10,589 nt of DNA from a virus (Duplodnaviria > Heunggongvirae > Uroviricota > Caudoviricetes): the IMG/VR virus record IMGVR_UViG_2541047790_000003; one strand, written 5' to 3'. How positions within the stretch are numbered: the stretch's first letter is position 1; each line of letters opens with the position of its first letter. The notes under the pieces are model-generated. The model was not told where the DNA came from and ran no database searches. It saw nothing but the letters and a program-made list of their open reading frames with translations. Below are positions 3,713 through 10,134 of the stretch, one piece after another. Position numbers and translations under genes: made by a program.

Positions 3713-4336
3713 ATGTCATCAATCCGCTTAACTACGAGAATGAAAGAGGAAATCGCTCGTAACGCTTTAATTAAGTCTGGGGTTTTCACTGAACTTGAAG
3801 AAGTAACAAAGTTAAAGAACCAGCTTGCACTTGACGCCAGAGTTATTGCGTTTGGCGGGAAAAAGAAAACTGAGGAAGTTGATCAGTTATCATCCAAGTT
3901 GGTAGCTATAAGTGAAGAACTTGAAAAGATGGGATGTTCATTTTACTCATACGATGTTCGTTCTACTTCAATTTATCTGACTGCATCTGGCAGAAGGATT
4001 GGATGGCATTCATATGGGAAAGACGGCAACGGCGAAGATATATTGCTCCCTACTCCGAACAAAGATAAATGCATGTTTAGCGCAGAACACGAAATAACAA
4101 AAAGGTTTGATGAAATCTGCGCATTGCAACAAAAACTTGAAGCCAAGAAAAAGGATATCGAATCAAATGTATGGGCTGCTTTGAACTCAGTCACAACAGT
4201 TAAGCGACTTATTGAGGTTTGGCCTGAAAGCAAAGAATTGCTACCAAAAGAAGCAGATAAAGCAAGTACAGCACTTCCTGCTTTACGGGTAGAAGATTTG
4301 AATAAGATGATTGGACTTCCTTCCGAGGCCGCATAG
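3713..4336 (+). CDS. Hypothetical 207-aa protein (cargo gene immediately after N)
   Basis: ATG at 3713 with GAGGAA 6 nt upstream, 11 nt after the N stop; 207 codons of protein-like composition (MSSIRLTTRMKEEIARNALIKSGVFTELEEV...); low GC by eye. No family recognised. Confidence 0.8.
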   Translation: MSSIRLTTRMKEEIARNALIKSGVFTELEEVTKLKNQLALDARVIAFGGKKKTEEVDQLSSKLVAISEELEKMGCSFYSYDVRSTSIYLTASGRRIGWHSYGKDGNGEDILLPTPNKDKCMFSAEHEITKRFDEICALQQKLEAKKKDIESNVWAALNSVTTVKRLIEVWPESKELLPKEADKASTALPALRVEDLNKMIGLPSEAA

Positions 4337-4399: not shown

Positions 4400-4870
4400 A
4401 TGACAAAATCACGGAGCGTACCTTTTCCTGAATCAGAAACTGAACATAATGGAATGCCTGTTTTCTGGAGATTCCAAGCGACAGTTGAAGAAGATGGAAT
4501 CAAAATATTCGCACTTCAATATATAGCTTTTCATCAGACAGAGCATTATGCATGGTTGGTTCCTGCGCATTGGATTGTTGATTTTAAACCAGCACCAAAT
4601 CAGTGGTTACAGGAATGGAAACAAAGGAGAAATAGATATGCAATTAAGAAAGTAGCAAAAAATGCAGAAAGATCTTTTGCATTCCCAACGAAGAAACTTG
4701 CTATTGAAAGTTTATTGCGTCGGAAGAAATACCATTTAATGAGAATAAAACAAGATTTGGCTGTTGTATCAACTCTTGTTGATGGGATGAAAAATATTGA
4801 TACATCAATACCAGATATTGAATATAACTTTGGACACAACCAAGAAACAGAAAATTGGGTATTTTATTAG
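4400..4870 (+). CDS. Hypothetical 156-aa protein (second cargo gene)
   Basis: ATG at 4400 with GAGGTGA RBS 4390-4396; 156 codons (MTKSRSVPFPESETEHNGMPVFWRFQATVEEDGIKIF...), basic C-terminal half; low GC by eye. No family recognised. Confidence 0.8.
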   Translation: MTKSRSVPFPESETEHNGMPVFWRFQATVEEDGIKIFALQYIAFHQTEHYAWLVPAHWIVDFKPAPNQWLQEWKQRRNRYAIKKVAKNAERSFAFPTKKLAIESLLRRKKYHLMRIKQDLAVVSTLVDGMKNIDTSIPDIEYNFGHNQETENWVFY

Positions 4871-5020: not shown

Positions 5021-5389
5021 ATGTCAAACATCAAAAAATACATCATTGATTACGACTGGAAAGCATCAATAGAAATTGAAATCGACCATGACGTAATGAC
5101 AGAGGAAAAACTTCACCAGATTAATAATTTCTGGTCAGACTCTGAATACCGACTCAATAAACACGGCTCTGTATTAAATGCTGTATTAATCATGCTGGCG
5201 CAACATGCTCTGCTTATAGCAATTTCAAGCGACTTAAATGCATATGGTGTTGTGTGTGAGTTCGACTGGAATGATGGAAATGGTCAGGAAGGATGGCCTC
5301 CAATGGATGGTAGCGAAGGAATAAGAATTACCGATATCGATACATCAGGAATATTTGATTCAGATGATATGACTATCAAAGCCGCCTGA
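5021..5389 (+). CDS. Ea10-like early protein (122 aa); identity tentative
   Basis: ATG at 5021 with GAGGA upstream; 122 codons, the same length as lambda Ea10, in the same relative position of the pL operon; acidic C-terminus. Assignment is from position and weak recollection. Confidence 0.6.
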   Translation: MSNIKKYIIDYDWKASIEIEIDHDVMTEEKLHQINNFWSDSEYRLNKHGSVLNAVLIMLAQHALLIAISSDLNAYGVVCEFDWNDGNGQEGWPPMDGSEGIRITDIDTSGIFDSDDMTIKAA

Positions 5390-5423
5390 GAGCGTTTTTA
5401 AAGAATACAACGAAGGAGGATAT

Positions 5424-6392
5424 ATGAGTGAAGTAACAGATTTAGTTGTTATTGAAAAATCAAATGCAATGACTGTATTTCAGTCTGCCGACCAGATTGA
5501 AGAAATCCTTCAAAAGGTTGAACGTGAAGTTATGTCCTTTGTTCCTGATATCACAACGGCAAAGGGCAGGAAGGAGATCGCTTCTCTGGCGTATAAAGTT
5601 GCGCAGACGAAAACATATCTCGATGGTCTTGGCAAAGACCTTGTTGCTGAACTGAAGGAAATTCCAAAGCTAATTGATGCCAACCGCAAGACAGTGCGTG
5701 ATCGCCTTGATGAGCTGAAAGCCAAGGCACGCCAGCCTCTTACTGATTATGAGGAAGAACAGGCGCGGATTAAAGCCGAAGAAGAAGCTAAGGCAGCAGC
5801 TGAAGCTCTCGCAAAGCAAATTGAGTCTGACCATGAAATAGCTATTTTGATGGATCGCGAATTTGACCGCCAAAGAGAAGAGGCAAGACTCAAAGCGGAG
5901 CAGGAAAAGCGAGAGCATGAAGAACGCTTAAAAAGAGAAGCTGAAGAGAAAGCCAGAGCAGAAGCCGAAGCAAAGGCAAAAGCCGAAATTGAAGCAGCAG
6001 CAAGGCGAGAAGCAGAAGCTAAGGCCGCTGCGGAACGAGCAGAGCGTGAACGCATTGAAGCCGAGCAACGAGCACAGCGCGAAGCAAAAGAGGCAGCAGA
6101 ACGAGCTGAAAGAGAAAAGCAGGCAGCAATTGAAGCAGAACGCAGAAAAGCACAGGAGGAGGCTGAACAAATCCGTCGCGATGCTGAAGCAAAAGAGCAA
6201 GCCAGAATAGCAGAAGAAAAAAGAATCAAGGACGAAGAAGAGCGTAGAGCAAAGGATAAAGCTCACCGGAAAGAAGTTAATAACAAAATACTTGCTGACC
6301 TTATCAAGGTTGGCGCATCAGAAGATGTTGCTAAAAATATCATAACAGCCATCGTAAAAGGCGAAGTATTCGCAACAAAAATAACCTACTAA
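5424..6392 (+). CDS. Hypothetical 322-aa protein with a long E/A/K/R-rich central helix
   Basis: ATG at 5424 with AAGGAGGA RBS. Globular-looking N-terminus (about 110 aa), then about 180 residues made almost entirely of E, A, K, R and Q (EAEAKAKAEIEAAARREAEAKAAAERAERERIEAEQRAQREAKEAAERAEREKQ...), then a short C-terminal domain. Confidence 0.85.
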   Translation: MSEVTDLVVIEKSNAMTVFQSADQIEEILQKVEREVMSFVPDITTAKGRKEIASLAYKVAQTKTYLDGLGKDLVAELKEIPKLIDANRKTVRDRLDELKAKARQPLTDYEEEQARIKAEEEAKAAAEALAKQIESDHEIAILMDREFDRQREEARLKAEQEKREHEERLKREAEEKARAEAEAKAKAEIEAAARREAEAKAAAERAERERIEAEQRAQREAKEAAERAEREKQAAIEAERRKAQEEAEQIRRDAEAKEQARIAEEKRIKDEEERRAKDKAHRKEVNNKILADLIKVGASEDVAKNIITAIVKGEVFATKITY

Positions 6393-6416: not shown

Positions 6417-6548
6417 ATGATTTACGCAATCGCGGGAGGCGCTCGCATGGGTGCCTTCCAACTAAATGAATCTTTACTTGAACGAATCACCCGTAAATTA
6501 CGTGACGGATGGAAAAGAGTTGAGGTCTTATTATGCGCAATGAAATAG
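6417..6548 (+). CDS. cIII: CIII-like protease (FtsH/HflB) inhibitor, 43 aa
   Basis: ATG at 6417 with AAGGAA RBS 6405-6410. Translation MIYAIAGGARMGAFQLNESLLERITRKLRDGWKRVEVLLCAMK shares YAIAG and the core ESLLERITRKLRDGWKR with lambda CIII as I recall it. Below the ORF-track length cutoff. Confidence 0.8.
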   Translation: MIYAIAGGARMGAFQLNESLLERITRKLRDGWKRVEVLLCAMK

Positions 6549-6685
6549 CCATCAATCACCAGATGCTTCGTGCTGCACAGAACAAAGCAGTAATAGCCAG
6601 ATTTATTGGTGATTCCAAAATGTGGCTTGAAGCAAATAAAGCGATGAAATCAGCTATCAACCTTCCGTGGTATCGCAGGAAATGA
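6533..6685 (+). CDS. kil: Kil-like small protein (host cell-division inhibitor), 50 aa; tentative
   Basis: ATG at 6533 with GAGGT 6 nt upstream, overlapping the cIII 3' end; 50 codons MRNEIAINHQMLRAAQNKAVIARFIGDSKMWLEANKAMKSAINLPWYRRK. Sits immediately downstream of cIII, as kil does in lambda and P22. Confidence 0.5.
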   Translation: MRNEIAINHQMLRAAQNKAVIARFIGDSKMWLEANKAMKSAINLPWYRRK

Positions 6686-6760
6686 GTTTCACAGATAACT
6701 GGTCAGACGAAGAATTCATTCGTCAGATGAAAGAATTAATCGGTAACGAAGGAGATATTC

Positions 6761-6931
6761 ATGTCACTTGCAACCACAGTGAAGGAGAGCAAGTTACAGA
6801 GACGCATGTACACGCAGCAGGCGTTAATGTATCGCCAGAAGGGAGATCGTGAAGGTGTTCGCGTATTTTTAAATGCGGCAAAGACTGAAGTATTAAATCA
6901 GCGTTATTTCCTTGGGCCATGTCCATTCTGA
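6761..6931 (+). CDS. Small 56-aa protein in the arf-equivalent position before erf; tentative
   Basis: ATG at 6761 with GGAG 6 nt upstream; 56 codons MSLATTVKESKLQRRMYTQQALMYRQKGDREGVRVFLNAAKTEVLNQRYFLGPCPF; stop at 6929-6931 lies 10 nt before the erf start, suggesting coupling. An alternative overlapping frame 6682-6852 also exists. Confidence 0.4.
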   Translation: MSLATTVKESKLQRRMYTQQALMYRQKGDREGVRVFLNAAKTEVLNQRYFLGPCPF

Positions 6932-6941
6932 GAACAAACAT

Positions 6942-7547
6942 ATGAGTAAAGAATTTTACGCAAGACTGGCAGCTATTCAGGAGAATCTGAACGCGCCAAA
7001 GAATCAGTACAACTCATTCGGTAAATATAAATACAGAAGCTGCGAAGACATTCTTGAAGGCGTTAAGCCGTTACTGAATGGCCTGTTTTTATCAATCAGC
7101 GATGAAGTTGTGTTGATTGGTGATCGGTATTACGTAAAAGCCACGGCAACTATTACCGATGGCGAAAACAGTCATACGGCAACCGCTCTTGCACGAGAGG
7201 AAGAAAGCAAGAAAGGAATGGATTCTGCACAAGTTACTGGAGCTACAAGCTCTTATGCGCGCAAGTATTGCCTCAATGGTTTGTTCGGCATTGATGATGC
7301 GAAAGATGCAGATACCGACGAACATAAACATCAGCAGAACGCAGCAGCAAAGCAATCAAAACCATCACCTACACCTGAACAGGTTCTAAAAGCATTCACT
7401 GACGCAGCAATGCAAAAAAACACCGTGGAAGAGCTTAAACAGGCGTTCGCCAAAGCGTGGAAGATGCTCGAAGGAACACCGGAGCAGCACAAAGCGCAGG
7501 ACGTTTACAACATCAGACGTGACGAATTAGAAGGAGCGTCTGCTTAA
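6942..7547 (+). CDS. erf: Erf-family single-strand annealing protein (P22 Erf-like recombinase)
   Basis: ATG at 6942. N-terminus MSKEFYARLAAIQENLNAPKNQYNSFGKYKYRSCEDILEGVKPLLNGL matches the conserved ERF-family motif as I recall it. The ORF-track start at 6912 is a TTG extension. Confidence 0.85.
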   Translation: MSKEFYARLAAIQENLNAPKNQYNSFGKYKYRSCEDILEGVKPLLNGLFLSISDEVVLIGDRYYVKATATITDGENSHTATALAREEESKKGMDSAQVTGATSSYARKYCLNGLFGIDDAKDADTDEHKHQQNAAAKQSKPSPTPEQVLKAFTDAAMQKNTVEELKQAFAKAWKMLEGTPEQHKAQDVYNIRRDELEGASA

Positions 7548-7930
7548 TGGCACATTCGATTACTGTAAGACTAAACAAGCCCGCAAGAGAGTTTCAGGCC
7601 GGGGAAAATATCGGATTCAACATCCGTGCTGGCGTTCAGTATTACGATCGCCAGACAAAAAAGAAAGAATGGACAAACTACAGCGCCGTTGTATTTGCCA
7701 AGCCGGGAGCGCAAGCGGATTACTACCGTAGTGTTCTTGTTGAAGGTGGCATTGTGGAAATTACCGGAGAAAACATCAGGGTTGATGTTTATCAGGGGCA
7801 AAATGGTCAATCAATCACTCTTGAATTACTGAATGCAAAGATTGGATTTGCAGCTTCAGGAAATGGCCCGCAGCAGCAAAGTAGTAACCAGCAGAACACT
7901 CCTGTATACGACGATTCCATCCCATTCTGA
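7547..7930 (+). CDS. Compact SSB-like single-stranded DNA-binding protein (127 aa)
   Basis: ATG at 7547 overlaps the erf stop (TAATG) with AAGGAG upstream. OB-fold-like core, a Gly/Gln-rich linker, and a C-terminal ...YDDSIPF tail matching the SSB C-terminal protein-interaction motif DDDIPF. Confidence 0.75.
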   Translation: MAHSITVRLNKPAREFQAGENIGFNIRAGVQYYDRQTKKKEWTNYSAVVFAKPGAQADYYRSVLVEGGIVEITGENIRVDVYQGQNGQSITLELLNAKIGFAASGNGPQQQSSNQQNTPVYDDSIPF

Positions 7931-7953: not shown

Positions 7954-8247
7954 ATGCCAGCGCCTCTGTATGGTGCGGATGACCCACGCCGCTGTTCCGG
8001 CAATTCCGTATCGGAGGTGCTGGATAAATTCAGGAAAAACTACGACCGGATAATGTCGCTACCGCAGGAAACGAAAGAGGAAAAGGAATTTCGCCATTGT
8101 ATATGGCTTGCAGAGAAAGAAGAACTAGAGCGAATTTACCAGACATCAATCCGACCATTCCGCAAAGCCACATATACCCACTTCCCTGAAATTGACCCGC
8201 GCCTGCGTAATTACCGCTCACGCTATGGCGCTATCAGTAATGACTGA
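7954..8247 (+). CDS. Hypothetical 97-aa protein, possibly an Abc2-like RecBCD modulator (tentative)
   Basis: ATG at 7954 with AAGGA 7 nt upstream; 97 codons [36 protein letters not shown].... Size and position after erf fit P22 Abc2; sequence identity is not verified. Confidence 0.7.
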
Positions 8248-9558: not shown

Positions 9559-10134
9559 ATGACCACTATAACCGATAAGAAACAGTATCCCAGCGATCAA
9601 TATCTTAATGAGCTGGTCACCAACATGGAGTTTGCTGCAAGGGCACCAGTTGAAGTCGTGAGAGCGATGGCAGCAGAGCTACAGAAGCGGCGCGAAGCTG
9701 ATAGTGCAGAACCTGTAAGCCAAACTTACAACTTGCCAGAATTAATCGAAGGCATGGAAGTTTCCATTGATGTAAGCACTTGTGATGCTGATTTAGGTAA
9801 TCGCTATTTCGGCACCGTCACCGAGGCGTTAGAACTTGATACAGCCAAGAATGGTTACATCCTCTTGGTTCAGGACGCAGAGCCAAACTTCGATGTAAAT
9901 GGCAACTCTCCGGTAACTCCGGATGGTTGGATAAGCTGTAGTGAGCGAATGCCAGATGATGGTCAGCACGTAATTATTTTATGTGATGGCGCATTCGTTC
10001 TTTATGCGCAATATCGAGACGGAGAGTTTTTCGATATTGTCCGCAATGGTGATGAATTTTTCGAAACACAGAGTCGCAATGTAACCGACTGGATGCCTCT
10101 ACCAGAACCGCCGAAGGAGGTTAACCGTGGCTAA
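9559..10134 (+). CDS. DUF551-like prophage protein (191 aa)
   Basis: ATG at 9559 with AAGGAGAG RBS. C-terminal region ...DGWISCSERMPDDGQHVIILCDGAFVLYAQYRDGEFF... has the WIS...ER.P pattern typical of DUF551 domains in enterobacterial prophages. Confidence 0.75.
   Translation: MTTITDKKQYPSDQYLNELVTNMEFAARAPVEVVRAMAAELQKRREADSAEPVSQTYNLPELIEGMEVSIDVSTCDADLGNRYFGTVTEALELDTAKNGYILLVQDAEPNFDVNGNSPVTPDGWISCSERMPDDGQHVIILCDGAFVLYAQYRDGEFFDIVRNGDEFFETQSRNVTDWMPLPEPPKEVNRG

Follow-up and report, generated by a model that had tools for sequence, protein, structure and literature searches.

A D3 gp53-like phage protein family with a predicted ER/K helical spacer accompanies annealing-type recombination modules

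Introduction

One protein of the family considered here, gp53 of the Pseudomonas phage D3, is linked by experiment to the contest over DNA ends. In a study of Gabija in P. aeruginosa, Hong et al. (bioRxiv 2025, PMC12407980) reported that D3 escape mutants lack orf52-66, that orf53 alone restores Gabija targeting of escape phages and cross-complements a JBD30 escaper, and that, in the presence of Gabija, a plasmid carrying orf53 is transduced 1–2 logs less well. Exo-Erf and Mu Gam, which bind DNA ends, license Gabija likewise. In the authors' model, licensing factors hold RecBCD off linear DNA, and it is this RecBCD-free DNA that Gabija targets (PMC12407980). The published experiments show the orf53 phenotype to be DNA-end- or RecBCD-related, although the preprint gives no family assignment or mechanism for gp53. 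Here, we describe a homologous gene in a 10,589-nucleotide stretch of DNA from a Caudoviricetes virus (IMG/VR record IMGVR_UViG_2541047790_000003), referred to below as the window. The gene lies at 5424..6392 on the + strand and encodes a protein of 322 amino acids (aa), much of which consists of a highly charged, presumptively helical segment.

Other phages carry different genes in comparable positions. In Firmicutes phages, DUF1351, Sipho_Gp157, DUF2483 and Mu-Gam-like genes lie beside genes for Erf, RecT or Sak4 (PMC8093625) and are the closest named analogues of the 322-aa gene, being analogous in position. The accessible part of a 2025 survey of 325 lambdoid recombination modules (PMC12315714) does not list the gene described here, and we found no published description of its family in the literature.

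Results

The open reading frame (ORF) at 5424..6392 is a real gene and a full-length homologue of D3 orf53. Unless a minus sign is given, features cited below by coordinates are on the + strand of the window. A canonical, strong Shine-Dalgarno sequence (AAGGAGG; 5413..5419) lies 4 nucleotides (nt) 5' of the ATG, and the product matches PHROG 1376, annotated there as "unknown function," with E = 6.7e-110 (phrog_1376). By BLASTP, the N-terminal domain of D3 gp53 is 52% identical to that of the 322-aa protein (E = 6e-38), and an alignment with D3 gp53 and JBD44 gp65 extends over the full length. D3 gp53 is the closest characterized relative, and the D3 gp53-like family, which corresponds to PHROG 1376, also includes JBD44 gp65 and gene 33 of Shigella phage Sf6. 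Genes 97–99% identical to the one in the window occur in 35 phage records, including HK544, CUS-3, Sf101, IME10, mEp043, mEp213 and HF4s; mEp234 carries the gene as well.

The family is large. When a profile built from an alignment of the N-terminal domain was searched against 1.84 billion cluster representatives (clusters at 50% identity), 5,753 clusters matched at E ≤ 1e-3 and 5,200 at E ≤ 1e-10, with a median length of 339 aa among 145 new top matches. The same domain was found by tblastn in 190 phage records, with hosts that include Pseudomonas, Vibrio, Escherichia/Shigella, Klebsiella, Erwinia, Yersinia and Acinetobacter. An earlier description of the window made from its sequence, the first-pass annotation, had considered a rigid charged spacer unusual for an early-operon phage protein. 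With thousands of members and 190 phage records, the gene is well represented in databases and is not unusual. Known domain models nonetheless pass it by. Searches of the whole protein with Pfam, NCBIfam and PADLOC returned nothing significant; Pfam searches with the separate N- and C-terminal domains, an N+C fusion, 90 relatives and the family consensus returned nothing except a sub-threshold match to RuvA_C, and none of 91 full-length members meaningfully matches any Pfam family. Sequence searches of the PDB with the single sequence and the N-domain profile gave nothing below E = 0.05. Structure comparison by Foldseek gave nothing below E = 4 in the PDB, and only family members in BFVD.

The genomic setting of the family gives a clue to function. 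From viral contigs and species genomes in GTDB, we retrieved 160 diverse loci, made crude gene calls, clustered the neighboring genes and named the clusters by Pfam. Of these loci, 104 could be evaluated, with a caller that misses some genes, such as the Erf gene of JBD44. An annealing protein is encoded within three genes of the family member at 68 of the 104 loci (ERF at 35, RecT/Redβ at 27 and Sak4-like AAA_24 at 6). It is the next gene at 35 loci and the second at 21, and it often starts 7–11 nt past the stop codon of the family member. YqaJ or DUF3799 exonucleases and SSB accompany the annealing gene, and only about 16 loci are without any recombination gene. Individual phages illustrate the arrangement: in D3, erf (orf52) and exo (orf51) come after orf53; JBD44 has gp65, Erf (gp64) and an exonuclease (gp63) in that order; and in Acinetobacter phage TCUAN1, the gene after the family member is annotated as Bet.

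The choice of annealing partner varies even among close relatives. Near-identical E. coli alleles are paired with Erf at 66 loci, with RecT at 4 and with a Sak4-like protein at 1. Because the same alleles occur with all three types, their shared target is expected to be DNA or host machinery rather than one specific annealing-protein partner. We are highly confident in the assignment of the protein to this family and of the family to recombination modules: it is a conserved accessory of annealing-type modules that is indifferent to the family of the annealing protein. The function, listed as unknown in the first-pass annotation, can thus be narrowed to that of a conserved neighbor of annealing and exonuclease genes whose homologue, D3 orf53, has a published phenotype, although the mechanism is reached by inference.

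Two other recurrent neighbors were seen at these loci. At the enterobacterial loci L098, L101, L104, L112, L159 and L164, an ORF of 93–96 aa lies between the family gene and the RecT/Redβ gene, as gene +1; a representative begins MNAFLTYDRIEDRRWVEQQ..., a start that loosely recalls lambda Gam, and has no Pfam match. At L160, L168, L194, L207, L208, L221, L223 and L242, a protein of about 334 aa (neighbor cluster 8), also with no Pfam match, is encoded beside the family gene. A DUF3799 exonuclease is found within a few genes in approximately half of the latter loci, and the 334-aa protein may be an unrecognized annealing protein.

The first-pass annotation placed small domains on either side of the charged segment, and both are real and conserved across relatives. 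The N-terminal domain (residues 1–115; 5424..5768) has a short beta/alpha start followed by the family motif, VPDxTTxKGRxxIASxAxKV..K..LD..GK.L...ID..R...R..LD...R.PL..(W/Y)E. This domain of about 115 aa is helical, with a conserved face of charged residues, and the eight columns that are invariant over 91 full-length members (R49, K63, G70, K71, R88, L95, P105 and E110) are all kept in the 322-aa protein. The C-terminal mini-domain (residues 278–322; 6255..6389) spans about 45 aa and is also conserved. Its motif in the 322-aa protein and its family is D.AHR..(V/I)NN......L...G..E..AK..(I/V)TAI.KG.(V/I).....I.Y, and the family version reads D..HR..(I/V)N......G..E..AK..V.AI.KG.IP.V.I.Y. In its looser form, HR..(I/V)N...G..E..AK..(V/I).AI..G.(I/V)....I.Y, the motif follows the ER/K-rich linker in the 322-aa protein. 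The C-domain consensus weakly matches RuvA_C, domain III of RuvA (Pfam E = 7.9e-4; 20.3 bits, below the cut-off of 24), and a Foldseek match to RuvA was non-significant; we regard this likeness only as a lead.

Between the two domains, the family usually has a middle module (about 75 aa) that closes with W-x-E-F, an aromatic motif present in about half of members; the charged helix comes next. The 322-aa protein has an alignment gap of about 75 columns at this point and retains only a 17-residue remnant of the module, a hydrophobic island at residues 133–149 (IESDHEIAILMDREFDR; 5820..5870) that is conserved in relatives and is deleted in a 245-aa variant and a 287-aa record. The charged helix itself is a family trait: 112 of 116 genes contain an 80-aa window with at least 80% E/A/K/R/Q, and the median length of the ER/K region is 144 aa over 206 members. 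The linker that joins the N- and C-terminal domains is conserved in length even though its sequence is of low complexity (median 201 aa; 5–95% range 163–232), with 170 aa in the 322-aa protein. Of 72 complete genes at E. coli-type loci, 64 encode the 322-aa form. Length variants range from 245 to 341 aa, natural forms of 245, 275, 300 and 333 aa among them, and every indel falls in the linker.

Some members depart from this architecture. In P0283 (519 aa), the ER/K helix is replaced by four tandem W-x-E-F middle modules, and P0229 (427 aa) keeps the N-terminal domain but has a P-loop-like (GSGKS) domain at the end where the C-terminal domain usually lies. A further member, L170, lies on a contig labeled as an Actinomycetes metagenome-assembled genome. 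Its C-terminus, VKGEVFATKITY, is exactly of the E. coli type, and the gene is followed by Erf and SSB; the contig is probably a mis-binned enterobacterial prophage.

Two conserved terminal domains joined by a spacer of conserved length would suit a protein that serves the phage recombination machinery itself as a scaffold or tether, in which one end binds the annealing protein, the exonuclease or SSB and the other binds the replisome or DNA, or in which two DNA ends are bridged for circularization. The tight operon coupling to the annealing gene, with its gaps of 7–11 nt, and the weak resemblance of the C-terminal domain to the protein-binding domain III of RuvA point the same way. However, one allele is found with unrelated annealing families, and family-wide the partners are Erf, RecT/Redβ and Sak4-like proteins, which makes a specific contact with the annealing protein unlikely. 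In addition, D3 orf53 needs no Exo-Erf to act in the Gabija assay. We therefore consider such a scaffold unlikely.

The charged segment was described in the first-pass annotation as consisting almost solely of E, A, K, R and Q over residues 110–290 (5751-6293). This proved slightly overstated. These five residues make up 82.9% of the segment, compared with 38% of the two flanking domains combined (binomial tail 8e-35), and 90.8% of core residues 150–280, but 31 of the 181 residues in the wider segment are of other types, and the hydrophobic island lies within it. The accompanying claim that richness in GAA, GCA and GAG codons generates spurious antisense ORFs was borne out. These codons account for 36, 23 and 13 of the 181 codons, respectively, and the sense strand of the coding region is 72% purine. 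This purine-rich codon bias leaves the opposite strand free of stops, giving three long antisense ORFs, at 5747-6229 (160 aa), 5928-6266 (112 aa) and 5670-5918 (82 aa), all on the − strand and together spanning 5670..6266. The repetition is compositional only: repeat copies in the DNA are 64–76% identical, and a true tandem array is absent at the DNA level from the repeat region of the gene.

Composition, salt bridges, averaged spectra and an AlphaFold2 model all bear on the type of helix formed by the core ER/K segment (residues 150–284; 5871..6275), which is predicted to be a single-alpha-helix-like spacer. The net score for i/i+4 and i/i+3 salt bridges is 47, compared with 14.3 ± 5.4 in composition-preserving shuffles (z = 6.1). 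Isoleucine and leucine make up about 6% of residues 150–280, with no other hydrophobic residue there, and hydrophobic residues amount to about 5% over residues 150–284. In spectra averaged over the ER/K regions of 206 family members, charge has a period of 7.9–8 residues with a harmonic at 2.7, the signature of E4K4-type ER/K motifs. The heptad signal of a canonical coiled coil is absent from the same spectra, with power at period 3.5 below the shuffle mean. The salt bridges, the 8-residue charge period, the lack of a heptad and the scarcity of hydrophobic residues favor an ER/K single-alpha-helix-like rod, in agreement with the likeness proposed in the first-pass annotation. That annotation had set against its proposal an ordinary coiled-coil dimer of a known family, such as a recombination or replication accessory protein. 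Structurally, this is not what we find, although the protein does belong to a recombination-associated family.

Two observations complicate the assignment of a monomeric helix. Alanine and hydrophobic residues, mostly alanine, recur with a period of 3.65–3.7 residues across the 206 members and would form a nearly straight alanine stripe. AlphaFold2 predicts a helix at residues 165–295, in a model whose predicted template modeling score (pTM) is low, at 0.38, and which, as a monomer-only model, is blind to the difference between a hairpin or an oligomer and a monomeric single alpha-helix. Given the stripe and the nature of the model, the helices may pair with one another or oligomerize. On balance, the sequence features somewhat favor a true single alpha-helix.

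A different identity is suggested by database names. Homologues in NCBI, JGI and phage records are called "cell envelope biogenesis protein TolA," "colicin import membrane protein" or "antitoxin," and the first-pass annotation likewise described the spacer as TolA-like. The case for a TolA-like or envelope-associated protein consists of these names and of an extended Ala-, Glu- and Lys-rich helical stretch, which does resemble domain II of TolA. The full-length protein, however, scores only 10.2 bits against the NCBIfam TolA model TIGR02794, for which the cut-off is 59.45 (E = 0.31). Pfam found no TolA or TonB C-terminal domain in the whole protein or in the separate N- and C-terminal domains, and the N-terminus (MSEVTDLVVIEKSNAMTVFQSADQ) has no hydrophobic span and hence no membrane anchor. 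Unlike TolA, the 322-aa protein has neither an anchor nor domain III, and it is cytoplasmic by context, in a genomic setting of DNA recombination. These results effectively refute an envelope role, to which we assign almost no probability, and rule out identity with TolA. The name appears in thousands of records because of the Ala/Glu/Lys composition alone.

In the window, the gene sits in an early-left operon of the lambda-immunity type, with the order cII, cro, cI; BstA; N; Nmad5; an unknown ORF; DUF2528; and the 322-aa gene, followed by cIII, kil, an arf-like ORF, erf, an ssb-like gene and abc2. Its position just before cIII had been correctly noted: cIII (PF02061; 6417-6548) starts 24 nt past the stop codon. 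Next come kil (6533-6685) and the arf-like ORF (6667-6852), both between the 322-aa gene and erf. The recombination module begins 520 nt downstream of the 322-aa gene with erf (ORF 6912-7547, likely ATG at 6942) and continues with the ssb-like gene (7547-7930) and the anti-RecBCD gene abc2 (7954-8247). Beyond the module lie genes for an Ead/Ea22-like protein (PF13935; 8889-9557) and a DUF551 protein (9559-10134).

Several further features of the window were noted. Three genes of unknown role separate N from the 322-aa gene, encoding an Nmad5 protein (PF18757, E = 9e-72; 3713-4336), a 156-aa PHROG 1636 protein with no Pfam match (4400-4870) and a DUF2528 protein (5021-5389). Between cI and N, in the place of lambda rexAB, is a gene for the abortive-infection protein BstA (1991-2896; PHROG 6287, E = 4.9e-135; PADLOC BstA, E = 2.9e-106). 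At the edge of the window, positions 4-189 encode the C-terminal end of an IS66-family transposase (PF13817, E = 2e-17), adjoining a lambda-type cII gene at 446-799 on the − strand. No O or P replication genes are found on the cII side within the window; thus, the right arm of the prophage may be interrupted by an insertion sequence element.

Discussion

Our results suggest a model in which the 322-aa protein is an accessory of the recombination module that acts at DNA ends. In this model, the target would be linear DNA ends or RecBCD, the end-processing machinery of the host, rather than one annealing protein, and the protein would thereby help to keep ends for the Erf pathway of the phage itself. 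As a semi-rigid spacer of about 20 nm (131 residues × 0.15 nm), the ER/K helix would hold the N- and C-terminal binding modules a set distance apart. We put the mechanism at DNA ends or RecBCD, taken on its own, at slightly under an even chance, and the explanation as a whole, a recombination-module accessory acting at DNA ends with an ER/K spacer, at evenly balanced odds.

Several observations weigh against this explanation. The window already contains an anti-RecBCD gene, abc2, and cIII, kil and the arf-like ORF separate the gene from erf. The ER/K segment is nearly charge-neutral (net −8), and so is no DNA mimic, and the alanine stripe and low-pTM model leave room for paired helices in place of a rod. 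Laboratory growth of D3 tolerates deletions of orf51-66, and thus of orf53. Of the six licensing factors in the preprint, just three are classed as end-binding, and gp53 is not one of them (PMC12407980).

Some of these observations bear more directly on a narrower proposal, in which the protein would be a dedicated inhibitor of host nucleases like lambda Gam or Mu Gam, blocking RecBCD or capping ends with the long helix as part of the inhibitory surface. The family occupies the "Gam position" directly upstream of annealing-protein and exonuclease genes, and D3 orf53 phenocopies Mu Gam in Gabija licensing (PMC12407980). For mEp234, which carries the gene, Table 1 of PMC12315714 has a '-' in its first functional column, which we take to stand for anti-RecBCD. 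Yet the 322-aa protein is much longer than lambda Gam and Mu Gam and lacks the strong acidity of a DNA mimic. Neither Pfam nor NCBIfam links it to the Gam or Mu Gam families, and no fold match was found in the PDB. Moreover, it coexists with Abc2 in the window, so that a simple substitute for Gam is not needed. An inhibitor of this kind thus seems improbable.

It is also possible, although we lean against it, that the family is a distant Gram-negative branch of DUF1351 (PF07083), the two forming one superfamily with a shared function. Genes for DUF1351 proteins adjoin those for Sak4, Erf, RecT or Bet in Oenococcus phage phi9805 and in IME197, phiARI0004, 50101, AB1 and M102AD, whereas lactococcal prophages bIL309, bIL285 and bIL286 proved not to carry them. 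The proteins are similar in size (278–354 aa) and co-linear in helical layout, and hhalign finds a local match of 48–50 columns with P = 0.001–0.0026. However, the hhalign probability of that match is only 12–21%, PF07083 misses the query, 90 members and the family consensus even at E ≤ 10, and hidden Markov models of the family score DUF1351 proteins at noise level. DUF1351 proteins also differ in having only a short E/K-rich stretch and a different C-terminal domain.

More speculatively, the gp53-like family could be an unrecognized class of phage DNA-end factor. Two modules would be held 20–30 nm apart, with an ER/K helix of conserved length as the ruler, and would exclude or redirect RecBCD, or bridge ends, for whichever annealing protein a phage has. 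Such a factor would be a general trigger sensed by defenses such as Gabija, and the family may be the Gram-negative counterpart of DUF1351. We offer this broader proposal tentatively and consider it doubtful as it stands.

Our analysis has implications both for annotation and for the study of phage recombination. The prophage genes mislabeled "TolA," of which Enterobacteria, Pseudomonas, Vibrio, Acinetobacter and other Proteobacteria carry thousands, belong to one family without a Pfam model. This family has a consistent genomic signature and a conserved architecture, and it is encoded directly upstream of annealing proteins of three families. Together with the D3 orf53 phenotype, this picture leads to a hypothesis, open to test, on a component of phage recombination and end protection that is yet to be assigned, for which HK544, mEp043, Sf6 and CUS-3 provide E. 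coli models. The family also offers a natural bacterial system in which to ask why the length of an ER/K linker is conserved. The combination of the family picture (no Pfam model, a conserved linker and three annealing families), the link to D3 orf53 and the hypothesis drawn from them appears not to have been stated before.

In summary, the 322-aa protein combines features of systems that have been described separately. Like the ER/K single alpha-helix domains of myosin VI/X lever extensions and caldesmon, its central segment is rich in E, K and R, with dense opposite charges at i/i+4, an 8-residue charge period, few hydrophobic residues, no heptad signal and a predicted uninterrupted helix. 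Unlike them, it is alanine-rich (24–27%), with an alanine stripe of period ~3.67, has more arginine than lysine, and belongs to a bacterial or phage setting; its monomeric state is a prediction from sequence. The closest comparison is with D3 gp53, which shares the ER/K helix, the C-terminal motif (DKAH.K.(I/V)NN...G...AK..IT.I....V....I.Y) and an early-operon position upstream of erf. D3 gp53 differs in keeping the ~75-aa W-x-E-F middle module, and its gene abuts erf-exo, whereas the window gene is set apart from an erf module that has no exonuclease gene and carries abc2. Gabija licensing is reported for D3 orf53 only.

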